Part shown: piece by piece, positions 6,761-59,672 of the stretch
Numbering within the stretch: position 1 is the first letter of the stretch
Layout of the letters: each line of letters opens with the position of its first letter
Virus record (IMG/VR): IMGVR_UViG_3300033121_001869
Coordinates: 45,076-109,075 of that record
Strand: one strand, 5' to 3'
Length of the DNA: 64,000 nt
From: a virus
Lineage: Duplodnaviria; Heunggongvirae; Uroviricota; Caudoviricetes
The notes under the pieces: generated by a model
What the model was told of the DNA's origin: nothing
Seen by the model: only the letters and a program-made list of their open reading frames with translations
The model's database searches: none
Position numbers and translations under genes: made by a program

Positions 6761-7273
6761 ATGTACAATCGAGGCAAAACAAATACAATCAAATACATAA
6801 TAAACTCATTCGCTAATGGGGAGATCGATCGTATTAAAGATATTGTCAATAAACAAGGAGAAGATATATTTGAATTAATACCAAAACTTAATAGTGGTAA
6901 CTATAGCAGATTGGCTGTTTATCCTATCAAGAATGGACACTTTGAGGCATTTAGACTATATTTGAATAGTTCTAATCCTAAACCACTTTCTCGTTCTGAG
7001 TTATATTTAATAACTAAGCATAATTCTAGTAAAAAAAGATTCAAATCTTGGATAGAAAACTATAAAAAATATACTGATGTCCAATCTTTTATAGAATTTG
7101 AAACAATATTCCCAATGTTTTTAAATAGCATTATATCAACATATAATGAAGAACTAATTGAAGAGTTTTTAGAAATGTATCCAGAAAATTACAATTTTAT
7201 AGTTGATAAAATAAATACATCAAATAAAGGAATTCAATTAAAACGTAATTTGAAACTAAAATATCTTGTATAG
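6761..7273 (+). CDS. hypothetical protein with C-terminal tag
   Basis: ends KRNLKLKYLV; TAATTTTG at 6749-6756. Confidence 0.6.
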   Translation: MYNRGKTNTIKYIINSFANGEIDRIKDIVNKQGEDIFELIPKLNSGNYSRLAVYPIKNGHFEAFRLYLNSSNPKPLSRSELYLITKHNSSKKRFKSWIENYKKYTDVQSFIEFETIFPMFLNSIISTYNEELIEEFLEMYPENYNFIVDKINTSNKGIQLKRNLKLKYLV

Positions 7274-7317
7274 TTACAAAATGGAATAATGAATTTGAGA
7301 AGTACATAAGAATATGC

Positions 7318-7563
7318 GTGGATTTCAAGGACTTAGATAAATTAAAACTAATGACATATGATAAATATTCATCTAAAGATGTATCATATACTTTAAAATT
7401 TGATGATAATTACCATATTGGATATTTTGACATCAAGAATATATCTGGAATATCTGGATATAATAATGGAGTGATATTAGATTTAGAATTAAAAAAATTA
7501 GAAATAGAAAAAGCCCCAATAGATTGGATTAGGAATTTTCATATCAATGAATTATTGAATTGA
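7318..7563 (+). CDS. small hypothetical protein with C-terminal tag
   Basis: ends IRNFHINELLN. Confidence 0.55.
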   Translation: MDFKDLDKLKLMTYDKYSSKDVSYTLKFDDNYHIGYFDIKNISGISGYNNGVILDLELKKLEIEKAPIDWIRNFHINELLN

Positions 7564-7735
7564 TTTTCCTATCCCGTTTATAGGTAATCCAGAAATTCTC
7601 ATGACAAGAAAATTGAGTACCATCATCCAAGTAAAGAAAGTAAGTATCACCAACTTTATTTTCAACAACTATATTTAAAGAATCAATATAATTGATATCG
7701 ACTTCCAAATCAATTGATCCAATATGAATAACCAT
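7544..7735 (-). CDS. small hypothetical protein with C-terminal tag
   Basis: ends KRDRKINSIIH. Confidence 0.55.
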   Translation of the reverse strand: MVIHIGSIDLEVDINYIDSLNIVVENKVGDTYFLYLDDGTQFSCHENFWITYKRDRKINSIIH

Positions 7736-8164
7736 ATAAAAAATTTAAAAGAAAAATTATATGATGTATATACCTACTATTTTGATTTGTTGTTATTTTT
7801 ATTTATAAATACAATCAATAGAAACAAAATAACAAGAAAAATTGATAAAATTATAATTCTAGAGAATTGGGTCATTTATTATGATGTTTTAGTTATTAAA
7901 AATTTAAACATAAATAGTGTAATATTAAATACCTCAAAGAATTGGTATACAATATTTACTCACAGTCCAAAAAATATTGAAGAGGCTAAAAAATATTTTC
8001 CTAGTATCTTAAAAAATTTAATACACATTGATGGATTTAGTAAAAATAATATTCCATTTAACAATGATGATTATTTTTTTAAAAAAATTAAACTTCAACC
8101 GCTACCCGAATATATAAGTGAGCAACGAAATCTACAATTAAATAAACTAATTAATGAAAAGTGA
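7724..8164 (+). CDS. hypothetical protein with C-terminal tag
   Basis: ends QRNLQLNKLINEK. Confidence 0.55.
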   Translation: MNNHIKNLKEKLYDVYTYYFDLLLFLFINTINRNKITRKIDKIIILENWVIYYDVLVIKNLNINSVILNTSKNWYTIFTHSPKNIEEAKKYFPSILKNLIHIDGFSKNNIPFNNDDYFFKKIKLQPLPEYISEQRNLQLNKLINEK

Positions 8165-8468
8165 AATTAAAATAGAATTTTCCAATAAAGAAATTCTAAA
8201 CCAACTAATCCAAAAATCCTATTTTGAAAATGGTCAACTCGGTAGACTATCAGGATCCAAAACCTATATTGAAATAACTCCCGAAATAGATGATATAGTA
8301 CATACTATTGTTAAGGGATTGAATAATGCAACAATTAAAATAACTAATTCCGATATTATTGATGGATCATTTAGATTCATAGTGGAAGAAAAAAACGAAA
8401 AAATAAAATTAATTCCAATATCTATTTTTTGCATTGAAGATGAAAATAACAAGTACTCATTCTATTGA
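8154..8468 (+). CDS. hypothetical protein
   Basis: 104-aa ORF overlapping neighbours. Confidence 0.6.
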   Translation: MKSEIKIEFSNKEILNQLIQKSYFENGQLGRLSGSKTYIEITPEIDDIVHTIVKGLNNATIKITNSDIIDGSFRFIVEEKNEKIKLIPISIFCIEDENNKYSFY

Positions 8469-8613
8469 TAAAGACATAGACATAATATCATATGATATTG
8501 TCTTGAAGCCTTCTATGTCATTAATGTATATAGATACAATAATATCTATAACTCGAACAAATAGCAGACTAAATAAAATTGAAAAAATACTCAAAAAGAT
8601 AAATGAAATTTGA
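8440..8613 (+). CDS. 57-aa protein with C-terminal tag (not in ORF track)
   Basis: MKITSTHSIDKD...SRLNKIEKILKKINEI; fills the gap before guaC. Confidence 0.55.
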   Translation: MKITSTHSIDKDIDIISYDIVLKPSMSLMYIDTIISITRTNSRLNKIEKILKKINEI

Positions 8614-9541: not shown

Positions 9542-9736
9542 GTTTATATTTCTTAAATTCTTCGGGGATATCCATAAGACTTTTCTTAGACATCAACCAT
9601 TGTAGGATGTTACCAACAGGAACACTTTTCCCATCATTTTGACTATTAACTCTATAATCAAATCCATACTAATATCATCTAAATTAAATTCTAATTTAGA
9701 ATCACTGTCTGTATGTTCTAAAAATTTCTTTATCAT
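9528..9736 (-). CDS. probable 69-aa protein broken by a 1-nt deletion (MIKKFLEHTDS...EEFKKYKPKST)
   Basis: adding one T to the T3 run at 9660-9662 joins two frames into a 210-nt ORF filling the gap. Confidence 0.5.
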
Positions 9737-9746
9737 AAATTATATA

Positions 9747-12998: not shown

Positions 12999-13982
12999 TT
13001 ATTTATACTTCCAAATAAAACCACTTGCGGATTTTAATCTACCAACACAACAATCACCAATATTTCCATCATTGACATTACAAGTAACAGAGGCTTCTTT
13101 AATTGATTTAAATTCATTTAATAAAATTCCATCTTTTGAATATTGAAAAACTGCCCTTAGTGTACTTCTATCAAGTTTATCCAATCCCAAATCAAACCAA
13201 GAATCTTTATATCTCCAAATAAATCCATGACAAGTCTTCATTCTACCTTGGCAACATCTTTCAGGTTTAATTTTTAAATTTTTATATACCGAAATAGCAC
13301 TATCCCACTCCTTTATCAAATTACCACTCAAGTCATATTGTAAAACAATTTTTGTTGGTTGAGAAGCACATTGTTTTTTCCAAATTCTTTTATCTTTCTT
13401 TATATCATAATCTTTAATATTATCCCAAACCTTTTTCTCACTACAATCTAACTTTTCGGCAATTTTCGGCATTGATAAATTCTCTTTAATATAAAGTTGA
13501 TATAATAAATCTCTATCGATTGGTTGTTTCAAATTATCACCTGATCGATTGTAGTTTGGAGTTTCCAAAGACTTTTCTTTAATAGAAATTGATATTTTAT
13601 TTTTATGTTCTTCAGATAATTTTTGACCAAGTTTAGATTTTCTCATTCTATCTCTGGATTCTTCGGTGTGTTTATATCCACTTCCACCTTGACCACCATC
13701 AGTTAAATTGGTTAAGTTATATCCTCTTGATTTATACAATTCAATATAATAACATTCCCAGTATTTCCACTCATCTTGTGGAACTTCATCTACTATTTTA
13801 ATTAATGGTTTAAGTCCTTTAGATAATAAAGATTTTATCCAAGATATTTTATGTGATCTTTTGTCAGATTTAGATTCTTGGATATGTGAGTAGAGTCTTT
13901 GTTTAAGATATTGATCTGTTTTTCCGATATACCTAACTTCTTCGGTTATTGGATCACAAAGTGAATAAATAAAAGTTTTCAT
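12999..13982 (-). CDS. GIY-YIG homing endonuclease with NUMOD repeats
   Basis: FIYSLCDP...YIGKT, E..YI, NLTDGGQG, HTEESR, VLQYDLSG repeats. Confidence 0.85.
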   Translation of the reverse strand: MKTFIYSLCDPITEEVRYIGKTDQYLKQRLYSHIQESKSDKRSHKISWIKSLLSKGLKPLIKIVDEVPQDEWKYWECYYIELYKSRGYNLTNLTDGGQGGSGYKHTEESRDRMRKSKLGQKLSEEHKNKISISIKEKSLETPNYNRSGDNLKQPIDRDLLYQLYIKENLSMPKIAEKLDCSEKKVWDNIKDYDIKKDKRIWKKQCASQPTKIVLQYDLSGNLIKEWDSAISVYKNLKIKPERCCQGRMKTCHGFIWRYKDSWFDLGLDKLDRSTLRAVFQYSKDGILLNEFKSIKEASVTCNVNDGNIGDCCVGRLKSASGFIWKYK

Positions 13983-14015
13983 AGGCTTTTTATTTTATAT
14001 ATAAAATAAGGTAAC

Positions 14016-14816
14016 CTACTTTTTCACCATAAAGAAAAAGCTTGAGTCTGACTGTCCTTTTATCTCTTCCTCGACCTCTTTTACCTCTTCTTTACCTTGA
14101 GACGTTATATCCGCACTGTTTATTTTCACATTTCCGGGAAGTGTAAAATCATATCGACCAGTCAAGTTTCCATATTGAATTTTAGCTAATCCAGTCACAT
14201 ACTTAATAAATAAATCATCTTTAAATAAATACTCTGGTAATATATTAGCATATGCTTCCATAACAACATCATGCTTAACATCCGTTAATATATGTAATCT
14301 ATGTTGTAATTGATTGAAATGATATCTTAGTGTGTATTTATTCAATTGATTTAACATATCAGACATTGAGTCTAATATTGTCTTATAAACACCCAAATCA
14401 CCTATTGTAGTAACGTAGGATGATAAGTAAGGTTGATTAGTCACACCAAGGTTAACAGATAAATTTGGAGTATTTATTCCCAGTTGAAATAAGCTAGCAT
14501 TTCTAACTTCATATAGATAAGTTACTGATTGAATCTCACACGGAACATTAACATATCTATAATTAGTAAATTCTTCTGTAAAGAAAGCATCCTTTTTTAT
14601 AAGAAAATATAACTTCTGAACAGCAAATTGGTATCTTCTATAAAAATACGGCATCGCTTTAGTTTCAACAATTCTCCTTATTTCAGAATCAGGTAAATTC
14701 TTTGGTAAAGCGCAACCAACTGTTATTTCATTTTGAACAAAGTCAATAAACTCTTCAATTGTATATCCTCCTTGATAAGGTGTGTATTCATTTCCATAAC
14801 CATTTAAATCTGCCAT
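14016..14816 (-). CDS. gp13: T4 gp13-like neck protein
   Basis: C-terminal KYVTGLAKIQYG...TLPGNVKIN...EEVKEVEEEI pattern; TAATATATA upstream. Confidence 0.7.
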   Translation of the reverse strand: MADLNGYGNEYTPYQGGYTIEEFIDFVQNEITVGCALPKNLPDSEIRRIVETKAMPYFYRRYQFAVQKLYFLIKKDAFFTEEFTNYRYVNVPCEIQSVTYLYEVRNASLFQLGINTPNLSVNLGVTNQPYLSSYVTTIGDLGVYKTILDSMSDMLNQLNKYTLRYHFNQLQHRLHILTDVKHDVVMEAYANILPEYLFKDDLFIKYVTGLAKIQYGNLTGRYDFTLPGNVKINSADITSQGKEEVKEVEEEIKGQSDSSFFFMVKK

Positions 14817-14853
14817 ACACTATATATTAATTTAATATTCTATTAATATATGA

Positions 14854-15186
14854 TTATCTTAACCACCAATCACCAGATCTAACTTCTTCAAATCCAGAAG
14901 TATCATACTTATATTCATAAATCCAACAAGATTTATCTGATATTAATATTTTTCTTCTTTCAAACTCATGACCTTCAAATTCATCTAATTCTTGGAATAT
15001 TTCCGGATCAACTAAATAAATATCTCCCGTTACTTTTCCAGATTTTGTTCTTACAAATCCAGGATAAAATTCATTAACTTTATAAATTACACCATTGGCA
15101 AATGTTCTTTCACAAAAAACGGCATTTTTTAATAGTGGCTTAGCAGAATCTCTAAATTGTCCATATACAAATAAATACTCTTTCAT
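14854..15186 (-). CDS. gamma-glutamylcyclotransferase (AIG2-like)
   Basis: YLFVYG, LDEFEG, ERRKI motifs. Confidence 0.8.
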   Translation of the reverse strand: MKEYLFVYGQFRDSAKPLLKNAVFCERTFANGVIYKVNEFYPGFVRTKSGKVTGDIYLVDPEIFQELDEFEGHEFERRKILISDKSCWIYEYKYDTSGFEEVRSGDWWLR

Positions 15187-15208
15187 ATTTATTATATATT
15201 TGATTATT

Positions 15209-16249
15209 TTATTTAAAGTTATTACTCTTACCCAGATCTCTTAAAATATTTTTCTCATCACTTGTAATAGAAGTTGGTATTTTTATATTAATTCTAATAA
15301 ATAAATCTCCCATTCTACCGTGCATATCGGGGATTCCTTTACCAACCACTCTAAGAAGCTTGCCGTGTGAGGTTCCTGGTAATATAGTGTATTTTATGTC
15401 TGTATTGTGTGGTGTTTTAATAGACTTTTCAACACCCAATATAGCATCAATAACAGGAATTGTTTCATCATAAATAAGATTTATATCTTCTCGTTTAAAT
15501 TTAGAATCTGGTATTTCATCAATGATTATTTGTAGATCCCCAGGAATACCATCTTTTATGTGATTTCCATATTGTGGCATAGACATGTAATTACCATCTA
15601 CTGCTCCTTTAGGTATTTCAACATCAACGGTTTCTTGTTTAACAACTACACCCTGCCCATGACATTTTTTACAAGGATTTTTAACAGATTTTCCATTTCC
15701 AGAACAATGTGAACAAACAGCAGTTTGTCTAATCGATCCAAATGCTGTATTTTGAACATAACTTCTATGTCCAGTTCCATTACAGTGTCCACAATTTACA
15801 ATATCTTCTCCTCCTTTACCATCACAAGTATCACATTTAACATTTCTATTATATTTTATTTTCTTGCGAACACCAAATATAATATCATTCAATGTTAAAC
15901 TAACTGTCATTCTTAAATCAGATCCCTTACGTCTTTGTTGTTGTCTGCGGTTTCCAAAACTTCCAAAAATATCTCCAAATTGTGAAAATAGATCTTCAAA
16001 AGGAACTCCGCTTCCTCCACCAAATGGATTTTGATTACCTGTTGTTCCAAATCTATCGTATTGTGATTTTTTTTCTTCGTCGGAAAGAATTGAGTATGCA
16101 TTTGAAATTTGTTTAAATTTTTCTTCAGATTCCTTCGATCCATTATTTTTATCCGGATGGTATTTCAATGCCAACCTTTTATATGCCTTTTTAATGTCAC
16201 TAGAAGTAGCATTATTGTCTAATTCTAGTATTTTATACAAGTCTTCCAT
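15209..16249 (-). CDS. dnaJ: chaperone DnaJ
   Basis: J domain with HPD, four CxxCxGxG repeats, GDL motifs. Confidence 0.97.
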   Translation of the reverse strand: MEDLYKILELDNNATSSDIKKAYKRLALKYHPDKNNGSKESEEKFKQISNAYSILSDEEKKSQYDRFGTTGNQNPFGGGSGVPFEDLFSQFGDIFGSFGNRRQQQRRKGSDLRMTVSLTLNDIIFGVRKKIKYNRNVKCDTCDGKGGEDIVNCGHCNGTGHRSYVQNTAFGSIRQTAVCSHCSGNGKSVKNPCKKCHGQGVVVKQETVDVEIPKGAVDGNYMSMPQYGNHIKDGIPGDLQIIIDEIPDSKFKREDINLIYDETIPVIDAILGVEKSIKTPHNTDIKYTILPGTSHGKLLRVVGKGIPDMHGRMGDLFIRINIKIPTSITSDEKNILRDLGKSNNFK

Positions 16250-33309: not shown

Positions 33310-33462
33310 ATGATTATTAAAGAATATCAGAAGAATATTTTGCACAAATTTATTGTAGAATACTATAAGTACTTATCAACATGGAATAAAAGCGCATCTT
33401 TAATTTCAATGATAGAAAGTGGTACTATTGACAGAAAAATTAGATCCAAAAAGTATTACTGA
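33310..33462 (+). CDS. 50-aa hypothetical, possibly the frameshifted N-terminus of the next ORF
   Basis: ATG directly after promoter; overlaps 33419 in another frame. Confidence 0.45.
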   Translation: MIIKEYQKNILHKFIVEYYKYLSTWNKSASLISMIESGTIDRKIRSKKYY

Positions 33463-33637
33463 TGAAATATTCGAAGAATTAATATCTATTGCGCATTTTG
33501 AATATAAAGATACGAAAACAATGACATCAGAGCTTTTAGCGGATATACTCTTTTTTATCATGCCTCTTATGTCCATAGATGATATATTAAAAATGATAAA
33601 TAGAGACTCAAAAATAAACTCAATACTAAATGAATAA
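33419..33637 (+). CDS. small hypothetical protein with C-terminal tag
   Basis: ends NRDSKINSILNE. Confidence 0.6.
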   Translation: MVLLTEKLDPKSITDEIFEELISIAHFEYKDTKTMTSELLADILFFIMPLMSIDDILKMINRDSKINSILNE

Positions 33638-35020: not shown

Positions 35021-35296
35021 TTACTTTTTTGTTAAATAATCGATTTTTTTATTACGAATCTGTTTTATATCTTTTATCTCTGCTATTTTAATTGTGAAGG
35101 ATGATTTCATAGTTTCTAAATTAACTAACTTCACTATTGAATATAAAACCAATATTGAAAATTTACCCATTTCTGATATTGTTTTTTTTATATCATCTAT
35201 GTTTTCAAATTCAAGTGTTTCACAAGTATAAGTACAAGAAACAAACTCGCCGTTGATAGTAAAAACATCAAATAATAGATACGAGAAGAAAGATAT
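35021..35296 (-). CDS. uncalled open frame with C-terminal tag; start uncertain
   Basis: open frame ending QIRNKKIDYLTKK*; first ATG at 35170. Confidence 0.4.
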   Translation of the reverse strand: MSFFSYLLFDVFTINGEFVSCTYTCETLEFENIDDIKKTISEMGKFSILVLYSIVKLVNLETMKSSFTIKIAEIKDIKQIRNKKIDYLTKK

Positions 35297-36071: not shown

Positions 36072-36626
36072 TTAAATCTTTTTGATTTGAGAAAAATTTA
36101 AATCAACAGCAGTAGCTCGTCCAAAAATTAGAACAAGTATTTTAACTCTTTTTTTCTCTTGATCGATAGTATCAACTTTACCTCTGAATGATGCAAAAGG
36201 ACCATCCATAATTTCAACTTCTTCACCAACTATAAAAACAGTACTAATATCTTTTGTATCTGTCTCTTCTTGCTCTATAATTATTTTCTTTACCTCATAA
36301 TCTTTCATTGGCATAATTTCACCTGAGCGAGTTCTAACAAAACCAGCTGCTCCGTTTATTCCCTTTAAAAGATTTATTAATTCACCCTTTGCGCTTGTCT
36401 CAATAAAAATATATCCAGGATATATAATTTTTTCTCTTATTACTCTTTTTCCGTCTTTTACAGAAAAAACCTTTTCTGTTGGAATGATTGTTCTCCCCAA
36501 TTTGTTCTCTAATTTAGAAAATTTTGTTTCCACTTTTAATCTTTCCAACACAGATCTTTCTTTATTATTCTGTGTCCTTACGGCATACCAATTCATTGTT
36601 TCTACCGATTCATTTTGTTTAATCAT
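36072..36626 (-). CDS. nusG: transcription elongation factor NusG
   Basis: WYAVRTQ, YPGYIFIE, GAAGFV, KOW GEEVEIMDGPFASF, IFGRAT. Confidence 0.93.
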   Translation of the reverse strand: MIKQNESVETMNWYAVRTQNNKERSVLERLKVETKFSKLENKLGRTIIPTEKVFSVKDGKRVIREKIIYPGYIFIETSAKGELINLLKGINGAAGFVRTRSGEIMPMKDYEVKKIIIEQEETDTKDISTVFIVGEEVEIMDGPFASFRGKVDTIDQEKKRVKILVLIFGRATAVDLNFSQIKKI

Positions 36627-36951
36627 ATATTAATTCATTTAATTTTTCACTTCTATTATAGATTATCAAATCACTAAGATCAAATCTATCTTTATATTCA
36701 TTTATAAATTCAGTTATTTGGATTTCTTGACTTTCACTTGATAATATTATATCTATAATTATAGATTCTTGAATATCTCTATATATACCATGTAAATCTT
36801 GTACAAACTCAGCTGATAATTTAAATTTAAATCCATATGTTTTTCCGGAATAGTTATCCATCCAAAATACCAATAAATATTTAGAGAATGTATGCAAGTT
36901 AACCATTGATGCATATAAAATATTAATATTATCTCTCTCTATTTTTTCCAC
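36619..36951 (-). CDS. hypothetical protein with C-terminal tag
   Basis: ends NRSEKLNELIYD. Confidence 0.6.
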   Translation of the reverse strand: MEKIERDNINILYASMVNLHTFSKYLLVFWMDNYSGKTYGFKFKLSAEFVQDLHGIYRDIQESIIIDIILSSESQEIQITEFINEYKDRFDLSDLIIYNRSEKLNELIYD

Positions 36952-38385: not shown

Positions 38386-39321
38386 TTAGATTATCAGGTT
38401 ATTTAAATTAACATATCGGTAAAAACTTGTAGTATTGGGTAACAAACATTCAAATTCTTGTGCAAAAGAACGAGTATTATAAATGTTATTCATCATATCT
38501 TTTTTCCAAGCTTCATCTCTATTTGGAATAACATACCAAGGATATTCCTTCTTAACAAAGTTATTATTATTTAAATAAATATCGGAAAAATATTTATCAC
38601 TTTCAGTAGGTGTAGAAAAAATTATAATCCTACCATCTCTAATAGATAATAACCTCGGAACTAACATACTATTAATTTCAGATTGGTGTGAATTATGTGC
38701 TAGATCAGATAAAACTAAAGTATCAATATTTGTCATGATATATTTTTCGGGATCTATTCCCAATAATATCTGAGAACCATTATCAAATACTATTTTATAT
38801 GGTGATCTATTATTAGCTATTCCCTTCTTAAGAAAGTAAGGCAAAGGTATATACAGTGAATATATTATTTCATAAAAACTCTTACACAATGCCGTTGTAG
38901 GACAAAGTACTAATGTGGTTTTATTTTTATTAAACATGGCATAGTGTAAAACATAAAGAGCCATTATTGTTGTTGTTCCAATTTGCCTCGATACATTAAG
39001 AATAGATAATCGATTCTTTGATACCGTATCAAGCATATCAATTTGTGAATTATAAAAAATAAATGATATAAATTCTTGAATATTCTTAATATCAGACTCA
39101 ATATTTGAATATTTTTTCTCCTCTTCCTCGGTGAATTTAAATTCGATATTGGGGGCTCTTATTCCTACTATAACATTACCACTATTTATAATATATGGAC
39201 TAACAAAAGTATAATTTGACTCTGTTCCCCCATCAATAATACCATCTATGAGAAAATCACGAATAAATGGTTTTTCTCCCATATCAGTATATAACTTTAA
39301 AAGATATGAATTCCAAATCAT
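38386..39321 (-). CDS. degenerate terminase large-subunit ATPase-domain paralog, no nuclease domain
   Basis: SRQIGTTT (K lost), LVLSDLAH (DE lost), FDNGS, FSTP, W..IPNRDEAW, FAQEFEC. Confidence 0.75.
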   Translation of the reverse strand: MIWNSYLLKLYTDMGEKPFIRDFLIDGIIDGGTESNYTFVSPYIINSGNVIVGIRAPNIEFKFTEEEEKKYSNIESDIKNIQEFISFIFYNSQIDMLDTVSKNRLSILNVSRQIGTTTIMALYVLHYAMFNKNKTTLVLCPTTALCKSFYEIIYSLYIPLPYFLKKGIANNRSPYKIVFDNGSQILLGIDPEKYIMTNIDTLVLSDLAHNSHQSEINSMLVPRLLSIRDGRIIIFSTPTESDKYFSDIYLNNNNFVKKEYPWYVIPNRDEAWKKDMMNNIYNTRSFAQEFECLLPNTTSFYRYVNLNNLII

Positions 39322-39366: not shown

Positions 39367-40905
39367 ATGAATATTCAAGATTTTAAATCGTTTCTAGAGA
39401 AGAATCTAAGCTTAGCAGATTTAGAAAAAACATCAAAAGGAGGAGGATTAAGAGGTGATATTTTAATTAATAAAATTAAAAATGAAGAGCCTATGAAGTT
39501 GACTTCGGGAGATGATGTTGTCGTACAAACTGATATTGATAAACTAACTGATGATAAACAGAAATACTCACCAAAGAAAGCTAAAAAGTTTCTTTTAAAA
39601 CCAAACACAAATAGATATGATCAGAAATTTGTAGATGAAGATGGGGAAACATATAAACTATCTGACTTTGTTAAAATTGGAGAATTCTCTGATAATGAAA
39701 GAGGAACATCTTTAGGAACTAAGGATACTAGAATAGTTGAAAGCGTTCAAACACTGGTATTATCTTATAAACAATCCATGATAAGAAATGGTGATTACAA
39801 ATATTTATCCTCAAATATCTTTGAAGAAGAAGATATCTTAGATAAATTAATGGAATTTAAAGATATAACAGCATTTATAGCTGATGTTGAAATCAATGAT
39901 ATTGAAAGGTTTTCCGGGTGGTATGAAACGTTTATAAAGACAGCAAATGCATTTATTCATCGAGGAAGAATTAGTGTACTATCAAATAGAATCTATTATA
40001 ATTTTTATCAAATGTCACATAAAGGTGATTTTATACAAGCTCTAACTGATGCATATAATAGATGTTGCAGAAAAACAATGGGACTTGGATTAAAGCAAGG
40101 AAGAACAATAAATATGGCAAAATGGTCTCCTAGTGATATTTGGGCAATAAATAGAACTAAAGAATCTGAAATAATTAAAAAATTAAATAATCCAACATTA
40201 ATATCGGATATAAATGACTTGAATAATTATATTGATAATTTATTTGATACTAAAAATTTAGTTGGGCTGTCACTAAAGAAACTACCAGAAATTCACAGTG
40301 CATTTCCTATAATAATAAATAAGGAAGCTCCTCGACCAAAATATACTATTGATAATTTCGTTTTTTCTCGAAACCCATTTACAAAAAATATCAAAATAGT
40401 TCTAAATAGAAACCTAAAACAATACTCCGGTAAAGATAGTCTGACAATAAGGAACTTCACAAGTGGACTTTCAAACATAGGTATTGAAGTTGATGGTGTT
40501 AGCTCAAGACAAGGAAAATTAACATCTCTAGAAACTATAAATCAATATTTGAAAAGTAAAAAATATCCATTGATTCCAGATGCCAAAACATTAGATTCAA
40601 AATTTACTAAAGATCACTTAATTAATAAAGTATTTTCATTAGATCAGAAATTAAAAAGTAATGATAGAACTGATGAGAGGGGACAAGAGAGAAATAAAAA
40701 ATTTGGAAATACAGTATCAAAAGAAGCATTAATCTGTAAATATCAGGGGTTATTATTAGTCCAATTTCTAATAGAGTGTTTAGTCAAAGGTGGATATGGG
40801 AAAACCAAAGCTAACTCAATTATAAATTCAATGATGTATTATGCACTTTCTATTGAAAATGATTATTTTAAATGTCCTAAATATGCTCGTGTAATTGATT
40901 ATTAA
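39367..40905 (+). CDS. large hypothetical protein, possible PD-(D/E)xK nuclease, N-terminal tag
   Basis: KWSPSDIWAI...LVGLSLKK; MNIQDFKSFLE; TAATATATA at 39353-39361. Confidence 0.6.
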   Translation: MNIQDFKSFLEKNLSLADLEKTSKGGGLRGDILINKIKNEEPMKLTSGDDVVVQTDIDKLTDDKQKYSPKKAKKFLLKPNTNRYDQKFVDEDGETYKLSDFVKIGEFSDNERGTSLGTKDTRIVESVQTLVLSYKQSMIRNGDYKYLSSNIFEEEDILDKLMEFKDITAFIADVEINDIERFSGWYETFIKTANAFIHRGRISVLSNRIYYNFYQMSHKGDFIQALTDAYNRCCRKTMGLGLKQGRTINMAKWSPSDIWAINRTKESEIIKKLNNPTLISDINDLNNYIDNLFDTKNLVGLSLKKLPEIHSAFPIIINKEAPRPKYTIDNFVFSRNPFTKNIKIVLNRNLKQYSGKDSLTIRNFTSGLSNIGIEVDGVSSRQGKLTSLETINQYLKSKKYPLIPDAKTLDSKFTKDHLINKVFSLDQKLKSNDRTDERGQERNKKFGNTVSKEALICKYQGLLLVQFLIECLVKGGYGKTKANSIINSMMYYALSIENDYFKCPKYARVIDY

Positions 40906-41423
40906 GATAATAAGCTCCGAATTTTTATTTGTCTATATAAACTATTAAATTCCTCTCTAATTTCATCGCTAAAAATATAATATGATTTATTTGTATACCA
41001 ATCATAATCCTGAGCCTGTACCGATTTATTTACATAATCATAACAATCTTTTACAATATCCATTGAATCGAACTTCTTACAGTAAAAAATAATATTATCA
41101 ATAATATTGAAATTTATTTTTTTAAATCCATAAAAAAAAGATGTTTTTGCATAATTACAAAAATAGTGCTCAATATTCACCTTGTGATTTTCAATCGTTG
41201 AGAATTTTGGATTTGAAAAAAGAGGTGATACCAGATAAAATTCACTTTGAGAAATTTTGGGAATTAACCATAAAATTTCCTTAGACAGTCTATCATCAAA
41301 ATAAATTTCAATATAGTCTTTCTTACAATTCATTATAGGTATCCAAACTAATTTCTTTTTGAAAACTAATCCATTAGATATTTTCCAATCCTCCTTATTC
41401 AATATAATATTATTAATATCCAT
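40902..41423 (-). CDS. hypothetical protein with C-terminal tag
   Basis: ends YRQIKIRSLLS. Confidence 0.65.
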   Translation of the reverse strand: MDINNIILNKEDWKISNGLVFKKKLVWIPIMNCKKDYIEIYFDDRLSKEILWLIPKISQSEFYLVSPLFSNPKFSTIENHKVNIEHYFCNYAKTSFFYGFKKINFNIIDNIIFYCKKFDSMDIVKDCYDYVNKSVQAQDYDWYTNKSYYIFSDEIREEFNSLYRQIKIRSLLS

Positions 41424-46943: not shown

Positions 46944-47706
46944 ATCCTATAAAGTCCTATTTGATAGAATTGACGACATACTAACAGGATGCGGTATGTT
47001 TGATGAATTTCCAGAGTTAAGGTTTAGTATTGAGAATTCAAAATGGTCTTATGCTATTGAAAGAATGATAGAATTTGGTGAAATATCTAAAGAAGATGCT
47101 GAAGATTTAGTTAAAAAATCATTTTTTATTGAGATTTTTGAAGATGTAGATATGTTAAGAAAAGAAGTTCTACATTATACAGAGCCAAAAATTTGGAAAA
47201 TAATTGAAGAAATTAATTTAAGATTAAAATCTTATGGACTTAAAGTATGTTATTCTGAATTTGGAGCAAATGATTTATCCTACGAATTAATAATAACTGA
47301 CATAAACTATAACTTTAAAAAATTAAATGAGTCTTCAATTGCAGCTTTAAAATACAAGTTTCGAAAAAATGATTTAATTCCGCAAGTTAAAGATATACTA
47401 AATGATTTAGATGATAATTTCCTAATATCAGAAGTTTTTTTCGAAGATCAAATCATCACATCATCTAAAACATTAGTAGTCAATATTAAAAAATCAGAAT
47501 GGGTTTCTAATATTAAAATATCAAAAATTTCAGATTCTATAAATCATATGATAGACTTCCTTAAAAAAGAAGGGTTTAATCTAAATTATCTATCCTATCA
47601 ATCTAGAGAAAGCGCAGTAGAGTCAATACCAATTAAGGATAATATAATAAGTGATATACCGGATATAATTTTTAATAATTTAGTATTAAAATTTATATCC
47701 CAATAG
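46915..47706 (+). CDS. hypothetical protein, N-terminal tag
   Basis: MRHLKTYESY; internal FKKLNES. Confidence 0.7.
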   Translation: MKMRHLKTYESYKVLFDRIDDILTGCGMFDEFPELRFSIENSKWSYAIERMIEFGEISKEDAEDLVKKSFFIEIFEDVDMLRKEVLHYTEPKIWKIIEEINLRLKSYGLKVCYSEFGANDLSYELIITDINYNFKKLNESSIAALKYKFRKNDLIPQVKDILNDLDDNFLISEVFFEDQIITSSKTLVVNIKKSEWVSNIKISKISDSINHMIDFLKKEGFNLNYLSYQSRESAVESIPIKDNIISDIPDIIFNNLVLKFISQ

Positions 47707-48040
47707 AAGATAATTTGTCTGATCTAATTTCTGATAAAACATATTCCAATCTTTTCTCATAAATAAATTCATCCAATGTTAATAAAGATCTTTCAAAATC
47801 GCTAAATTTTTTACCTTCAATTTTATTGTAATATGTGGTTTGTAATAAATTTGAATTAATATAAATGACACTATCAGTTATTTTCATAGCTAAGTAAATA
47901 TCATAATAAAAAAGAACTGAACTATCTTGATCTTTATATCTAGCCTCAGAAATTAAAATATCAATAACATCATCAAATTTAGTCCCATGATATTTATGAA
48001 TACTTTTTCTATAAATTTTTCTTGCTAATTGAATATTCAT
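47693..48040 (-). CDS. hypothetical protein with C-terminal tag
   Basis: ends IRSDKLSSIGI. Confidence 0.6.
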   Translation of the reverse strand: MNIQLARKIYRKSIHKYHGTKFDDVIDILISEARYKDQDSSVLFYYDIYLAMKITDSVIYINSNLLQTTYYNKIEGKKFSDFERSLLTLDEFIYEKRLEYVLSEIRSDKLSSIGI

Positions 48041-54249: not shown

Positions 54250-54580
54250 ATTTAAATATGTTTTTTTGTTTTTGTCTATCAGAAATTTGACTTTCCCATT
54301 TTTTATTTTTCAATTCTACTTCTGATAAAAGTTCTTCCAAGGAGATATTAAATCTAGAACATATCAAAAGTAAATTTTGTAATGTGTCTGCCATTTCTTC
54401 CTTTATATTAGATAAAACTTCCTCATTTGTTTCCCTTAATATCTTACGTCCAGTAGTTTTATTAATTTCTCGGATTAATTCACCAGATTCTTCAACAAAT
54501 TTACAAACGGCTTCGGAAATTGAACATTTATCTGTTTTGTCGAGAGTTTTAATTTCCTCGTATATTTTTTCTATTTTCAT
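54239..54580 (-). CDS. MazG-like NTP pyrophosphohydrolase
   Basis: EESGEL...KEEMADTL...KNKKW. Confidence 0.8.
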   Translation of the reverse strand: MKIEKIYEEIKTLDKTDKCSISEAVCKFVEESGELIREINKTTGRKILRETNEEVLSNIKEEMADTLQNLLLICSRFNISLEELLSEVELKNKKWESQISDRQKQKNIFKYEN

Positions 54581-54852
54581 TTTATAATCTCATTTAATTT
54601 TTTTTCTCTTAGGACAGATACACTAATTGGACACCATTGTGGAACTTTAACATTTTTAGTCTGATACGGTCTTAATCCAACATCAATAGATTTAAATGGG
54701 TATCTATCTACCAAATATTCAGATTTTTTATCGGGAACTTTCATGACTTTTGTACAAACTAAAGCAACATCATCCTGATTAAACCAATCCGTAGGATCTG
54801 GATCTTCAACAACCTTATGGTTTGGACAATCTATGCATCTTTCGTAGTGCAT
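54577..54852 (-). CDS. small Cys-containing protein with C-terminal tag
   Basis: CIDCP...PQWCP; ends LREKKLNEIIK. Confidence 0.65.
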   Translation of the reverse strand: MHYERCIDCPNHKVVEDPDPTDWFNQDDVALVCTKVMKVPDKKSEYLVDRYPFKSIDVGLRPYQTKNVKVPQWCPISVSVLREKKLNEIIK

Positions 54853-55118
54853 TAGTCTAAAATTTTTTCTATTTTATCATCACGAAATTCAACCTTCAGT
54901 AATGATTTAATATATTCAGCCATTCTAATACCCCTTACTTCTATTTTATATCTAACATTTGAATTTACAACAATATTCAATACCCATCTATCATGGTCGA
55001 TTGACTCATATTTATGAATATAAACATATTCAAGACCATCTTGAATAAGTCTACCTTCAACTCCAGGGGTTATTCTAGTAATAGCTAGAACATAATCCTT
55101 TCCTTTTTCGAAAATCAT
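54852..55118 (-). CDS. small protein with C-terminal tag
   Basis: ends FRDDKIEKILD. Confidence 0.6.
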   Translation of the reverse strand: MIFEKGKDYVLAITRITPGVEGRLIQDGLEYVYIHKYESIDHDRWVLNIVVNSNVRYKIEVRGIRMAEYIKSLLKVEFRDDKIEKILD

Positions 55119-55623: not shown

Positions 55624-55896
55624 CTAATTTATATCATAGTCTTTTACCTGATTGATTATTTTATCATAAGGCTCTACCATATTTATAATAGATTCCATTA
55701 AAGGAATATAATCATCTGTTGTTTCAATATTTCCAATTTTTTCAGTAAGTTCATCATCAACATTTATTATCATTTTATCAGATGTATAATAAAAAATAGA
55801 ATTATAAAATGTGTTTTCATATACCAATCCAACTGATACTAAAATACCACCCTCATATTTACCCAAATAATCAAGAACTGATGCAGTTATCTTCAT
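55624..55896 (-). CDS. hypothetical protein
   Basis: 90-aa ORF. Confidence 0.6.
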   Translation of the reverse strand: MKITASVLDYLGKYEGGILVSVGLVYENTFYNSIFYYTSDKMIINVDDELTEKIGNIETTDDYIPLMESIINMVEPYDKIINQVKDYDIN

Positions 55897-56101
55897 TTAA
55901 TATTTTTTCTATTTTTTCATCCCTGATACTAACCAAATAACCAGCTTGGTTTAGTGTATTAAATAAAGACATTCCAATTGTGTCTCTACCATCTTGAAAT
56001 GAGTATATCATATCACGATAATACTCATGTATTCTTATTTTATCTCCATCTGAAAGACAAGAAATCTTTTGTAAATCCAAATAATAATTCTCTATATTCA
56101 T
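55871..56101 (-). CDS. small protein with C-terminal tag
   Basis: IRDEKIEKILN. Confidence 0.65.
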   Translation of the reverse strand: MNIENYYLDLQKISCLSDGDKIRIHEYYRDMIYSFQDGRDTIGMSLFNTLNQAGYLVSIRDEKIEKILNEDNCISS

Positions 56102-56380: not shown

Positions 56381-56438
56381 ACAAGTTTGTTTTTTATTTT
56401 ATATATTTGCATAACATGTTTGTTTATTAAAGAAGTAT

Positions 56439-57059
56439 ATGAATAATTTAAAAAATTTCACATCTATAAATTGTATTTGTTGCGGAACAAAAATTGAACT
56501 CTATGATGCAATAAACAATCCACATTTTGACATGAATGAATTTATGAATCAATATCAACCAAATGATAGATATAGACCCGAATCGCAAATATGGGAAAAT
56601 GGCATAGTCGAAGGATTATCAGCGGGTTATGGATCTAAACATGATGGTAATATGTATTACATAGGGATTTGTGATGAATGTGTTGAGACAAATACACTCA
56701 ATGGTAGACTTAGATATTCTGGTTGTTATTTGGGATTTGATGTATTCAATGAAAATGATTTATTAGAATTTGATAAGAAAAGAAATCGTGAAAATAATAT
56801 TAATTCACTAATGGAAAATCAATCCACAAATAGCTATAAAATAAAATTGGTATCAAAAAAATGGATCGATATCAAAGAAGGTGATTATAACACTCTACCA
56901 TCAGAAGGAATTAATGTTTTAATTAGTGATGGTATAAATCATGATGTTGCCTATTACATAAGAAGTGGAGAATATAAGTGGTTAAAAGTAAATATTAAAA
57001 ACGATGAGGCTCCAGAATTTGATGATTTTATTCCGATAAAATGGAAATATATCGATTAA
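56439..57059 (+). CDS. two-module protein: Cys-rich domain ending in an internal C-tag, then a DUF551-like module
   Basis: CICCG...CDEC; RNRENNINSL; KWIDIK...LP....VLISDG; TATATTTG upstream. Confidence 0.6.
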   Translation: MNNLKNFTSINCICCGTKIELYDAINNPHFDMNEFMNQYQPNDRYRPESQIWENGIVEGLSAGYGSKHDGNMYYIGICDECVETNTLNGRLRYSGCYLGFDVFNENDLLEFDKKRNRENNINSLMENQSTNSYKIKLVSKKWIDIKEGDYNTLPSEGINVLISDGINHDVAYYIRSGEYKWLKVNIKNDEAPEFDDFIPIKWKYID

Positions 57060-59485
57060 GTTCTATCATATGAATTACCATTATCTTTAAAATTTGGCAA
57101 ATTAAGTTTCATTGATGCATTATCCGCAAAGATTAAATATTTAGAATCATCCGCAATAATATATTGATTTAATAATTTGTTATGTTCTGTCTCAGGTATA
57201 ATATCACTGAATAATCGAATATTTGTCAGTTTCATATCTGAATTTTCTATATGTGCTAATATAGTTGAATCTAATTCATATTCAATAGGAGTTATATCTT
57301 GGTTAACAAGAGAATAAACAGGCTTCAAAATAGTTGAATTAAGTAATCTAGCTCTATCTTCCTCATCATCTTCTACATTTCTTTTATAAATATATTGTGA
57401 CATTTTTCGCTGCCTTTGATCTATGTTTATAACATAACAATACCAAACATCTTCTGATAAAGCAATATCTCCAGAAGAGCCATTAAAACTCCAAGTATAA
57501 GAATCACTATTTAAAGTTGTAACAATTGAATCTGAAACTAAAGTTGTTTTCCAACCTAATGAATTAGCATCATCATAAAAATTAAAGAAATTATGCTCCT
57601 CACCTTCTAAATAATTTTTTAAATTAAACCAAGCATAGAATCCTATATTATCCGAAACCTTCAATACTGAATTGACATTTTTATACTTAACAATAGGATC
57701 CATTCCCAAAACTTCTGAAAAATCATAATGCTGCTTAGAAATAATAGTTGTAGAATTTTCTACCAATTCTTTGATAATTAAAGTATTAATAAGGATTCCA
57801 TTATCCAATTCAACCCGAATTGGATCTCTGGTAAGTGGTTGTTGCTGATCTTTATTGGCAACAGCCGATTTATCTTTTTTATTTTCGATATTGAATAATT
57901 GATCAATGGTTGAATTATTCGTGAGCTGATTAACTCTATCACGGATTGATTGTTCACCTGCTTGCACATTGGCTGATTTGTTGTATTTTTTAAGTACCAC
58001 CTTGTAGTATATAGCATAATTATTGAAATTTCTAAACTGTTGAGCATGATCAACAATGAATAATCTATTTATATCACAAAAATAAACCAAATCTTCTTTA
58101 GATGGTCTTCTTTCAACACCAAATAAGGATTTAAAAGATTCTTTTGTAATATGTATTTCAAACGAGTCGAATAAATTTAAATCAAACTGATTCATAATTA
58201 TTTGATTATCAGGGAATAAGTTATTATCAACAGCAACCTTTAATTCACCCTCACAAGCAATTGTAAAAAGTCCGTATTCATGAAGTGAATAATCAATTCC
58301 CTTAGAATCCGGATCTGTAACAAAGTATTGTACTCTGTGTCCAAATACCTCCATAGCATCATTACTTAACTTATTAAGTAAATTATTCGCCTGTGTTTGT
58401 TGATAAGGATTATATAATTTGGATTTCTCATCATCTGTCATTGGATTAAAGATATTATCAGCACAACTTTGCCCTGATAAAACGCCTGTCGTGTTGGGTA
58501 TAAAATTTCCGTTTTCATCGACAGATCCAGCATTTGAAGTGTTAGCAGAATTGGCAACTAGAAAGGATTGACAACACTCCCTTATTCCAAACAGATTTGT
58601 TTTTTGGGAATCAAGTGTAACATTTTGAAAATCTCCAATCAGATTTATATCTTGTATTTTAATATTTCCTGAGGAATTATTTTCTATCAAATATTCAATT
58701 TGGAAAAATCTAATTGGATTAATTCGTTTTGTTGATATGTTTTCTTTGGTTAATGGCTCCCACTCAGACCAGGTTCTTGAATTATCTTGTGAAAATCTAT
58801 ATTTTATTGAGACATCAGTTAAATCTGAAGAGCTAATAATTTCAATATCATCTATTCTAAACACCTTGTAAATATAAGGTGGTTTTATTATTGAACTACC
58901 ACCACTGCCTACTATAACTGTATCTGTATTTTCATCTCTCAATAAATCACCATTTAACTCATAACTCAATAATCTTATAAATCCATCTGTCTTTGTGCCG
59001 GATCTTTTCCACTTTAAATCTATCCACATTTTATCTAAAGGATCAAAAGGTGGGAAATTATCCATATTGAACTCCGCCTTAGTAACGGTATAAGTTGTGG
59101 AATTTGTCGCTAAAGTAGTTTGATATGAATTAATCTCATCAAATGGTAGAAATTCTGTCCATGTGCTACCATTTCTTGAAATCCTATATGTTGGTTCAAG
59201 AAATCTGGTTTGTAGTGTTCCAATTGTTTCAAATTCAAATGAATTAAATTTTTTAACCCTTTCCAATTGTATAAATGATATAATATACTCATCATCAACA
59301 TTATAAAAATAGGGTGTAGCATTAATATCTGATTGTGTTGCGGAAACATCATAAAGCTCATCAATTATTATTTCACCTAAGTTAAAATTATTTACTATAT
59401 TTGACATTAAATTATATATTAAAACATTCATGCGAACAATCAAAATACTAGCAAAAAAAGATATATATGGTGGTTTAGGACTCAA
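57056..59485 (-). CDS. large virion structural protein with a T4 gp14-like central domain
   Basis: VFGHRVQYF..D...DYSLHEY and RPSKEDLVYF...RLFIV patterns; beta-rich termini. Confidence 0.55.
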   Translation of the reverse strand: MSPKPPYISFFASILIVRMNVLIYNLMSNIVNNFNLGEIIIDELYDVSATQSDINATPYFYNVDDEYIISFIQLERVKKFNSFEFETIGTLQTRFLEPTYRISRNGSTWTEFLPFDEINSYQTTLATNSTTYTVTKAEFNMDNFPPFDPLDKMWIDLKWKRSGTKTDGFIRLLSYELNGDLLRDENTDTVIVGSGGSSIIKPPYIYKVFRIDDIEIISSSDLTDVSIKYRFSQDNSRTWSEWEPLTKENISTKRINPIRFFQIEYLIENNSSGNIKIQDINLIGDFQNVTLDSQKTNLFGIRECCQSFLVANSANTSNAGSVDENGNFIPNTTGVLSGQSCADNIFNPMTDDEKSKLYNPYQQTQANNLLNKLSNDAMEVFGHRVQYFVTDPDSKGIDYSLHEYGLFTIACEGELKVAVDNNLFPDNQIIMNQFDLNLFDSFEIHITKESFKSLFGVERRPSKEDLVYFCDINRLFIVDHAQQFRNFNNYAIYYKVVLKKYNKSANVQAGEQSIRDRVNQLTNNSTIDQLFNIENKKDKSAVANKDQQQPLTRDPIRVELDNGILINTLIIKELVENSTTIISKQHYDFSEVLGMDPIVKYKNVNSVLKVSDNIGFYAWFNLKNYLEGEEHNFFNFYDDANSLGWKTTLVSDSIVTTLNSDSYTWSFNGSSGDIALSEDVWYCYVINIDQRQRKMSQYIYKRNVEDDEEDRARLLNSTILKPVYSLVNQDITPIEYELDSTILAHIENSDMKLTNIRLFSDIIPETEHNKLLNQYIIADDSKYLIFADNASMKLNLPNFKDNGNSYDRT

Positions 59486-59672
59486 AATATATACAAAAGA
59501 TAAATATTATGAGGCATCATATGATGAACAATTTGATGCTTGGATATTAGATTCTGATATTATTATCAACGAAAGACCTATATATGATAACAAGTTCATT
59601 AAGGAAAATTTTTTACTTCCCGAAGAAATTAGAGATAATAATATTAACATTATTTTGAATAAATCTAAATAA
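59430..59672 (+). CDS. small protein with C-terminal tag
   Basis: ends IRDNNINIILNKSK. Confidence 0.6.
   Translation: MRTIKILAKKDIYGGLGLKIYTKDKYYEASYDEQFDAWILDSDIIINERPIYDNKFIKENFLLPEEIRDNNINIILNKSK

Follow-up and report, generated by a model that had tools for sequence, protein, structure and literature searches.

The window analyzed here, a stretch of 64,000 nucleotides from a large uncultured Bacteroidota phage, contains a series of open reading frames (ORFs) that end in a shared peptide tag. About 1 in 10 proteins of this phage carries the tag, and the tagged proteins are all small, mutually unrelated, and apparently early. All 15 of the small-protein endings named in the original prediction are present in frame, as is the single internal copy. 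The listed tags lie 0 to 8 codons ahead of the stop codon, in ORFs of 49 to 311 aa. The features are given below, with the tail as the number of residues between tag and stop.

6761..7273, plus strand: 170-aa tagged ORF, RNLKLKYLV at 7244-7270, tail 0
7318..7563, plus strand: 81-aa tagged ORF, RNFHINELL at 7531-7557, tail 1
7544..7735, minus strand: 63-aa tagged ORF, RDRKINSII at 7550-7576, tail 1
7724..8164, plus strand: 146-aa tagged ORF, RNLQLNKLI at 8126-8152, tail 3
8434..8613, plus strand: 59-aa tagged ORF, RLNKIEKIL at 8566-8592, tail 6
33419..33637, plus strand: 72-aa tagged ORF, RDSKINSIL at 33602-33628, tail 2; the LR745206 ortholog is tagged too
35021..35170, minus strand: 49-aa ORF, uncertain gene, RNKKIDYLT at 35030-35056, tail 2
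36619..36951, minus strand: 110-aa tagged ORF, RSEKLNELI at 36628-36654, tail 2
38386..39321, minus strand: 311-aa TerL-like ATPase-only protein, RYVNLNNLI at 38392-38418
40902..41423, minus strand: 173-aa tagged ORF, RQIKIRSLL at 40908-40934, tail 1
47693..48040, minus strand: 115-aa tagged ORF, RSDKLSSIG at 47699-47725, tail 1, of the ..LGI/..IGI flavor
54577..54852, minus strand: 91-aa Cys-rich tagged ORF, REKKLNEII at 54583-54609, tail 1
54852..55118, minus strand: 88-aa tagged ORF, RDDKIEKIL at 54858-54884, tail 1
55871..56101, minus strand: 76-aa tagged ORF, RDEKIEKIL at 55898-55924, tail 8
56439..57059, plus strand: 206-aa protein, internal RENNINSLM at 56787-56813
59430..59672, plus strand: 80-aa tagged ORF, RDNNINIIL at 59631-59657, tail 4

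The 81-aa ORF is convergent with the tagged ORF at 7544..7735 and overlaps it, and the 110-aa ORF lies just upstream of a phage NusG gene. For the 49-aa ORF, the tag is the sole support for a gene, and the ending of the TerL-like ATPase is a weak instance that may have arisen by chance. The 88-aa protein is an ORFan in a search of 5.8 billion proteins. Two others belong to families in which the tag is conserved: LYRQIK is invariant among 10 homologs of the 173-aa protein, and R60, K63, and L68 are invariant among 31 homologs of the 76-aa protein, whose tails range from 1 to 11 aa. The internal RENNINSLM of the 206-aa protein lines up with the tag at the C terminus of its LR745206 ortholog, which is shorter at 132 aa, indicating that the longer protein was tagged and acquired a C-terminal extension later.

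The motif is far more frequent than in shuffled C termini. With the pattern R..[KQN][IL]..[IL][ILVG] placed no more than 10 residues from the C terminus, the whole 182,437-bp contig yields 25 C-terminal matches, compared with a mean of 0.2 when whole proteins are shuffled and 0.3 when the last 20 residues alone are shuffled (maximum of 3 in 500 shuffles). The pattern had no match in the reversed proteins of the contig or in the first 20 residues of its proteins. In a leave-one-out PSSM analysis, 20 of the 22 top-scoring genes had their best match no more than 12 residues from the end, compared with an expectation of 3.3. The PSSM puts the number of tagged ORFs on the contig at about 30 to 34, so the earlier count of about 15 is true for the 64-kb window only. 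The observation is real and stronger than first noted, and we found no publications describing this tag.

Selection acts on the peptide, as indicated by five codons for the tag arginine (AGA 13, AGG 4, CGT 3, CGA 2, and CGG 1), mixed codons for isoleucine and leucine (ATT, ATA, ATC, TTA, CTA, CTT, and CTG), and no nucleotide conservation 3' of the stop codon in tagged genes. On the same grounds we rejected a DNA or RNA signal at gene ends, such as a promoter, terminator, or coupling site; in addition, the downstream gene is on the other strand for 21% to 26% of tagged genes. A single paralogous family was rejected as well, at the BLASTP level. The protein bodies are unrelated, as originally proposed: the best body-versus-body BLASTP match on the contig is no better than E = 0.03, the bodies are singletons in 27 of 27, 108 of 110, and 33 of 33 cases in three tag sets (BLASTP, 1e-3), and two AlphaFold (AF2) models differ in topology. 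A Pfam search with the 20 largest tagged LR745206 proteins found a domain in none. The tag is C-terminal in position, has a variable tail, and is portable across unrelated bodies.

The consensus, h-x-x-h-R-[D/E/N]-x-K-[I/L]-x-x-[I/L]-[L/G]-x-stop, describes a portable helix of about 10 to 13 residues. Its arginine is invariant without the pattern requiring it (18 of 18, 86 of 96, and 44 of 48 in three tag sets, compared with about 10% internally), and lysine replaces it in 2 of 96 cases. The net charge is about +1.5. The tail after the motif spans 0 to 11 aa overall and is frequently polar (D, N, or K), with lengths of 0 to 8 aa across genes and of 1 to 11 aa in one orthologous family in which the motif is invariant. 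Logos show no conserved cleavage-type motif flanking the tag. In the AF2 models of the 173-aa and 76-aa proteins, the tag is part of a terminal helix that stands apart from the fold and is modeled with low confidence; tag-helix pLDDT drops to 52-63 in both. In the 173-aa protein it forms the distal half of the terminal helix 153-172, and the body of the 76-aa protein is modeled at pLDDT >90. An amphipathic docking helix in the classical sense, as first suggested, did not stand: the hydrophobic moment of the tag, 0.79, is not above that of shuffled versions, 0.93, because R0, K3, I4, I7, and L8 are on one face. The conserved residues form a single mixed basic and hydrophobic face.

Relatives of the phage carry the tag in the same or altered form. 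It is present on 101 of the 971 ORFs of LR745206 and is kept in orthologs of 30% to 49% identity, which tolerate extensions of 40 to 80 aa beyond it; internal copies are conserved. In LR756504, at least 115 ORFs bear a shifted variant, R-K-x-K-I-x-x-L-L-stop, and LR756501 has D-P-Y-G-E-E-x-W instead, on about 42 ORFs. At position +1, D, E, or N is found in 88% of LR745206 tags, versus Lys in 56% of LR756504 tags; at position +4, I and L are about equal in the former, versus 96% Ile in the latter; and the modal tail is 1 residue versus 0. Concerted shifts of this kind, seen between sister phages in more than 100 unrelated proteins, imply one co-evolving reader. From the invariant arginine together with the lineage-wise shift, we infer on sequence grounds that the tag is probably a shared address label with one putative common reader, to which the face formed by R0, K3, I/L4, I/L7, and L8 would be presented and which would co-evolve with the tag. 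The shared partner of the original prediction gains indirect support from both observations, and its amphipathic form does not.

The same genome encodes about 30 proteins with an N-terminal tag (N-tag, MKYLKxFE) that resembles the capsid targeting sequence (CTS) of phage T4. The predicted mutual exclusivity of the two tags largely holds: both are found on one protein in 0 cases in G000 (3.1 expected, p=0.03), 2 in LR745206 (10.9 expected, p=5e-4), and 0 in G002 (3.6 expected, p=0.02). Alongside the N-tag, the C-terminal tag (C-tag) forms a second, separate tag of the addressing type. The two classes also differ in their promoters. N-tag genes are preceded by a phage-specific TAATATATA box, and C-tag genes lie in units behind host-type TAnnTTTG promoters, as had been claimed. 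With the host-type Bacteroidota promoter defined as TTT at about -33 plus TAnnTTTG (-7), the ratio of host-type to phage-box promoters is 8:2 for C-tag versus 2:26 for N-tag genes in G000 (p=4e-5) and 46:18 versus 2:70 in LR745206 (p=1e-18), with about half of the tagged genes assignable to neither class. The split was not reproduced in LR756504 with the same motif definitions. We call the C-tag proteins early from their promoter type alone.

Our preferred mechanism, held tentatively, is that the tag is a label for timed removal. The tagged cargo, fast-evolving domain-less accessory proteins from host-type promoters and taken as early, would be passed on to a protease or unfoldase produced at a later stage. 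Of the available candidates, the best would be the N-domain-less ClpC-like ATPase of the phage, with its VGF ClpP-docking loop, together with the phage ClpP; this pair would clear host-takeover proteins once the late program starts. ClpP is among the 17 of 266 G000 genes found in both tag-bearing relatives and missing from the tag-less one. The ClpC-like ATPase has a GVGF loop in tag-bearing phages and no such loop in LR756501, and both genes lie behind TAATATAT-type phage promoter boxes. Directly upstream of ClpC, G000, LR745206, L134, and L135 encode a 119-aa protein in which a tag-like helix is conserved. All 6 informative tag-bearing records encode ClpP. So do 8 of 9 sampled records of huge phages; LR756508 and LR756500 are among these 8 and show no A-type tag in about 90 kb each, so the link between ClpP and the tag is weak. 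LR756501 has a tag system and lacks ClpP, and N-domain-less VGF-loop ClpC is widespread in viral contigs, with 2 tag matches among about 1,800 ORFs in its flanks. The phage ClpC-ClpP pair is thus a candidate reader that is statistically weak.

Known C-terminal signals for Clp proteases are usually unstructured and need the extreme terminus or a free carboxylate, as in ssrA (..LAA-COOH) and MuA (..RRKKAI-COOH); adaptor motifs include the SspB-binding part of ssrA and the XB tail of SspB. The likeness to our tag lies in short C-terminal peptides that bring unrelated proteins to one AAA+ protease and, for MuA, in basic residues with a hydrophobic end. In contrast, the tag described here is a helical motif that tolerates tails and usually has a polar end, and the phage ClpC has no N-domain, the usual adaptor-binding part. 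An ssrA-like degron with a non-polar end and free carboxylate was rejected because the tail of 0 to 11 aa is often polar and varies while the motif is invariant. The MuA-type ClpX signal (C-motif 2), a basic cluster with a hydrophobic C-terminal end, is loosely similar to the R and K and the following I..IL of the tag, most of all in the LR756504 variant; the helical periodicity and the acidic +1 residue of the G000 tag differ.

A helical tag that tolerates tails and internal positions fits a docking motif better than a terminal degron. It may be that the helix plugs early effectors into one hub, for localization or co-regulation and not degradation, and we regard this as a reading to be entertained with reserve; the hub could be, for instance, the RNA polymerase, nucleoid, replisome, or ribosome of the host, or a compartment or scaffold built by the phage. 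Docking is consistent with the nonsignificant ClpP association and shares with timed removal the invariant arginine, the single mixed face, the concerted lineage shift, and the early-type promoters. However, a presence/absence screen gave no candidate hub, and docking leaves unexplained why about 10% of the proteome, with unrelated bodies, needs one binding site. We consider it unlikely that the tag is an intrinsic structural element, a generic C-terminal capping or oligomerization helix through which small proteins would be stabilized or multimerized, with no shared external reader. The tag of the 173-aa family does extend a long conserved terminal helix, with its proximal half confidently modeled, and in some related proteins, helices resembling the tag are retained internally or close to the N terminus. 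Against this, the arginine is strictly invariant and almost never replaced by lysine, the same sequence occurs on more than 100 unrelated bodies, sister phages show concerted drift, one of them with a wholly different motif, and pLDDT falls across the tag.

The CTS of phage T4, found on the internal proteins IPI-III and Alt, is an N-terminal sequence of late virion proteins that the prohead protease cuts off at an L/I-x-E site. It resembles our tag in being a short helical peptide at one terminus of unrelated phage proteins, and a single phage structure reads it. A C-terminal counterpart, loading proteins into the head for injection, would suit a partly T4-like phage (T4-type terminase ATPase, gp23-like fragments) that has some 30 CTS-like N-tags and a small gp23-N-terminus-like protein carrying tag copies, yet we judge it very improbable. 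The tag here is C-terminal, has no cleavage motif, excludes the N-tag, and belongs to genes behind host-type promoters, whereas N-tag genes are behind the phage box. The first 140 kb of G002, collinear with the TerL-containing stretch of LR745206, are free of tags, as are the 140-180 kb bins of LR745206 that hold TerL. A T4-type CTS was rejected on position, with the motif 0 to 8 residues from the C terminus and absent from the first 20 residues, and, as late virion cargo, on the host-type promoters and the tag-free TerL-collinear region, with timing read from promoters. The motif ends close to the stop codon, most often with a single residue between them, and its charge is positive; these features could point to a membrane-targeting amphipathic helix or to a nascent-peptide signal in the ribosome at termination, two readings to which we give hardly any credence. 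MinD- or FtsA-type targeting is at odds with the moment, with an arginine not interchangeable with lysine, and with the conserved acidic residues at +1. A termination signal is at odds with a motif-stop distance of 0 to 11 aa in one family with an invariant motif, with the roughly one quarter of tagged genes that have no same-strand downstream gene, and with the extended orthologs and conserved internal copies.

To our knowledge, terminal address peptides of phages are known for virion cargo only, as in the T4 CTS. Encapsulin cargo-loading peptides and bacterial microcompartment encapsulation peptides resemble the tag in being terminal, often helical, and able to bring unrelated cargo to one shell, but they have other consensus sequences, and in this phage the cargo is not enzymes but early proteins without domains. 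According to one preprint, the ChAD C-terminal extensions of TAC antitoxins make one dedicated chaperone necessary and are family-specific elements bound by SecB-like chaperones (bioRxiv 10.1101/2024.02.24.581848). The likeness, by analogy only, is in the C-terminal extension and in a phage with a large proteostasis set (DnaK, J-protein, FKBP, ClpC, and ClpP). Unlike ChAD, the tag is not family-specific, and DnaK and J-protein are also encoded by a relative without this tag.

One label covers about a tenth of the phage proteome and is confined to domain-less accessory genes, the bulk of the "dark matter" in huge phages. It groups about 100 proteins of unassigned function per genome into one class tied to one promoter type, and it predicts a single partner that a synthetic 15-mer peptide should be able to retrieve. 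Should the reader prove to be a protease or a sorter, the tag would represent a new level at which phage infection is controlled in time and would provide a ready-made set of lineage-orthogonal protein tags. We speculate that two terminal codes may sort the proteome of huge Bacteroidota phages, with the C-terminal Arg-helix marking the early accessory tenth and the N-terminal CTS-like tag marking late virion cargo. The reader of the C-terminal code could be a phage-encoded machine, for example ClpP with the N-domain-less ClpC, by which the whole early class is removed or relocated at once, and code and reader may co-evolve fast, such that sister phages use R-D-x-K-I-x-x-I-L, R-K-x-K-I-x-x-L-L, and D-P-Y-G-E-E-x-W. 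If this two-code reading is true, it would amount to a proteome-wide, virus-encoded temporal switch at the protein level.

A C-terminal helix of the form R-x-x-K-I/L-x-x-I/L-L, here called the C-tag, is shared by small, otherwise unrelated proteins of this phage. The endings listed in the original prediction all lie in frame, 0 to 8 codons ahead of the stop. On the whole contig (G000), the pattern R..[KQN][IL]..[IL][ILVG] matched 25 times at most 10 residues from a C-terminus, against 0.2 to 0.3 matches in shuffled sequences (maximum of 3 in 500 shuffles), and it had no match in the reversed proteins or near N-termini. With a leave-one-out PSSM, the best match was C-terminal in 20 of the 22 top genes (3.3 expected), and PSSM counting puts the tagged ORFs on the contig at about 30 to 34. 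Selection acts at the peptide level. The tag Arg is encoded by AGA, AGG, CGT, CGA, and CGG, seven different codons occur at the I/L positions, and we found no conservation downstream of the stops of tagged genes; on this codon diversity and the lack of downstream conservation, a DNA-level signal was rejected, whether a terminator, a coupling site, or a promoter like AAAATTGA. DNA-pattern counts of tags in remote genomes were unusable because of a low signal-to-noise ratio. No description of the tag was found in the literature searched; a survey of jumbo phages lists phage ClpP, ClpA, ClpX, and ClpS and no shared terminal tag (PMC7824862).

The source contig is a linear IMG/VR viral sequence of 182,437 bp with 27.7% GC, and the window corresponds to its bases 45076 to 109075. 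Its DnaK is 78 to 79% identical to those of LR745206 and LR756502, uncultured huge phages of 635 to 642 kb, and 60 to 64% identical to those of LR756501/3/4, and the contig and LR745206 have 108 reciprocal-best genes in common (median identity, 45%). The DnaK identity and the genes in common with LR745206 therefore point to a huge Bacteroidota phage of which the contig is probably a fragment; for this clade, the CheckV estimate of 79% is untrustworthy. The phage has a large proteostasis set, consisting of DnaK, a J-domain protein, a PTH2-like protein, a ClpC-like ATPase that has a VGF loop and no N-domain, ClpP, and a SlyD-like FKBP.

Features of the contig (G000) and the window
G000 13620-13668: example of a promoter box
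G000 14232-14591, (+): 119-aa protein with a tag-like helix, just upstream of the ClpC-like gene; syntenic in LR745206 and at loci L134 and L135
Window 23187-25061 and 15209-16249, both (-), and G000 13669-16719, 168441-169136, and 172631-173047, all (+): proteostasis genes, set as a whole
Window 38386-39321, (-): TerL-like protein of 311 aa, T4-type terminase ATPase domain alone; followed by a 5'-3' exonuclease ORF

Anchored on the Arg, the consensus reads h-x-x-h-R-[D/N/E]-x-K-[I/L]-[N/E/D]-x-[I/L]-[L/G/I], followed by a tail whose commonest length is one residue. The Arg is kept even where the search pattern does not demand it (18/18, 86/96, and 44/48, versus about 10% in internal look-alikes), Lys almost never takes its place, and there is no Pro among 137 tags. 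The tag presents a recognition face in which basic and hydrophobic residues are mixed. An amphipathic docking helix was one possibility raised in the original prediction; the hydrophobic moment speaks against membrane-type amphipathicity: at 0.79, versus 0.93 in shuffled versions, it is not raised, because R0, K3, I4, I7, and L8 sit on one helical face. AlphaFold models of two tagged families (76 aa, 31 sequences; 173 aa, 10 sequences) differ in body topology, and in both the tag is predicted to lie on a terminal helix where pLDDT drops from about 90 to 52 to 63. A PDB fold search with the 76-aa body returned nothing at E<=0.001. Tail length varies between 1 and 11 residues in the 76-aa family, in which R, K, and L are invariant; therefore, the free carboxylate is not the determinant.

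The bodies are indeed unrelated, being singletons in 27 of 27 cases on the contig, 108 of 110 in LR745206, and 33 of 33 in the related contig G002, and a hidden paralog family behind the tag was rejected. Tagged proteins are small (median of 104 to 109 aa versus about 154 to 183 aa for the rest). None of the 20 largest tagged LR745206 proteins had a Pfam match, and of ten window proteins scanned only one did, the doubtful TerL-like protein, whose tag-like ending scores poorly with the PSSM and is a weak instance. We rejected a split terminase, a translational bypass, or an intron at this ORF: an exonuclease follows it, no Terminase_6C or nuclease domain was found on the contig, and its identity to TerL in related huge phages, where several such ATPase paralogs occur, is only 27 to 30%. 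In eight reciprocal-best ortholog pairs (30 to 49% identity), the tag is retained on both sides, and RENNINSLM, internal at first sight, corresponds in the alignment to the C-terminal tag on a shorter ortholog. The ortholog search with an 88-aa tagged protein was empty, making it an ORFan. Hardly any tagged protein belongs to the conserved core common to more distant relatives. A 98-aa protein (G000 179351-179647, -) has an N-terminus matching the start of the T4 major capsid protein gp23 (Pfam Gp23 positions 9 to 31) and an internal tag copy, RDRKIDSIV; its LR756504 ortholog has two copies, one of them terminal. A well-conserved 131-aa protein (G000 165773-166168, +), 53% identical to its LR745206 and LR756504 homologs and absent in LR756501, has a tag-like sequence near its N-terminus in G000 and LR745206 and not in LR756504. 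Directly downstream of a tagged 110-aa gene, the phage encodes a NusG homolog with NGN and KOW domains (window 36072-36626, -).

Promoter boxes were found by enrichment of intergenic 8-mers, and transcription units were then assigned to one or the other box. The phage-specific box, aTTTAATATATAa, lies about 20 nt ahead of start codons in the intergenic regions of the contig and LR745206; the second consists of TAnnTTTG and, about 22 nt upstream, a conserved TTT. The arrangement TTT(-33)/TAnnTTTG(-7) corresponds to the Bacteroidota -33/-7 promoter architecture. In line with the original prediction, C-tag genes tend to lie behind host-type promoters (8 host to 2 phage on the contig), versus 2 to 26 for genes with the N-tag, the CTS-like N-terminal MKYLKxFE tag of about 30 proteins of the same genome (p=4e-5). 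The LR745206 ratios are 46 to 18 and 2 to 70 (p=1e-18), and nearly all N-tag genes lie behind the phage box. Co-occurrence of the two tags is rare (0 versus 3.1 expected on the contig, 2 versus 10.9 in LR745206, and 0 versus 3.6 in G002). The idea of a second addressing system for early proteins thus gains partial support from the promoter split and the tag exclusivity, but the split was not reproduced in LR756504 with the same motif definitions. Promoter motifs, taken by themselves, support a putatively early timing of the C-tag proteins.

Candidates for a common partner that recognizes the tag (the reader), and that may degrade or dock the tagged proteins, were sought among contig genes that both tag-bearing relatives have and that LR756501, a sister huge phage without the Arg-helix tag and without ClpP, does not. 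This screen yielded 17 of 266 genes, including a ClpP protease, a SlyD-like FKBP, a UVR-motif protein, and a NUDIX protein. HMM searches gave 1, 2, and 3 copies of ClpP in the tag-bearing phages versus 0 in LR756501. An Hsp100 ATPase occurs in all four phages compared; that of the tag-bearing phages is ClpC-like, lacks an N-domain, has a middle domain of the UVR type, and carries a G-V-G-F loop where the ClpP-docking tripeptide lies, and that of LR756501 has a Clp_N domain and neither the middle domain nor the loop. The ClpC unit lies behind a TAATATAT box and includes a PTH2-like gene and the 119-aa gene, whose product has a conserved C-terminal helix resembling the tag, R-R-D/E-x-[T/I]-I-x-x-[I/L]-L, and after it about 12 further residues; the product is a possible adaptor, regulator, or mere substrate. 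The head gene of the operon, p188, was rejected as the adaptor, being a member of a PTH2-like phage family that is widespread (853 representatives). Early proteins would, on one account, be cleared on schedule by the phage ClpC-ClpP, which the ClpC features and the phage-type box would fit. Wider sampling weakened this idea of timed clearance: N-domain-less ClpC with a VGF loop is common in viral contigs with tag-free flanks (2 matches among about 1,800 ORFs), and LR756508 and LR756500 both encode ClpP although they showed no A-type (Arg-helix) tag in about 90 kb of each. With ClpP in 8 of 9 records, its co-occurrence with the tag carries no statistical weight. The lack of ClpP in G002 (385 kb) is uninformative because this contig, collinear only with LR745206 160 to 520 kb, does not span the syntenic ClpP region. 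A Lys-rich "tag" in other ClpC-bearing contigs proved to be an artefact of one ortholog recurring at every locus.

Terminal sequences differ among the sister phages.

Examples of terminal sequences in related records
LR756504.1 606076-607226 and 624676-629909: variant tag
LR756501.1 499642-503452 and 552409-555773 (loci L099-L102): DPYGEExW ending
LR756500.1 11601-17016 and about 190-200 kb (loci L240, L238): NADDFGFFDN proteins

The simple pattern is found on 101 of 971 ORFs in LR745206, and the tag is on 11 of 73 in a 42-kb sample of LR756502. Nine neighboring LR756500 proteins (198 to 369 aa) end in ..N-A-D-D-F-G-F-F-D-N-stop and also have sequence ahead of this ending in common, which makes one paralog family more probable than a portable tag. 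LR756504 has a ClpX-like ATPase in addition to three copies of ClpP, and its tagged ORFs include tandem arrays of 141-aa paralogs. At least 115 LR756504 ORFs carry a shifted tag, R-K-x-[K/I/R]-I-x-x-L-[L/I]-stop, with Lys at +1 in 56%, Ile at +4 in 96%, Leu at +7 in 79%, and mostly no tail. In LR756501, the Arg-helix tag is essentially absent (1 of 1051), and about 42 ORFs of 55 to 843 aa have a sharp alternative ending, ..D-P-Y-G-E-E-x-W-x-x-stop. Judged from these sequences, the concerted change of the tag across more than 100 unrelated proteins would be best explained by a single reader that co-evolves with the tags.
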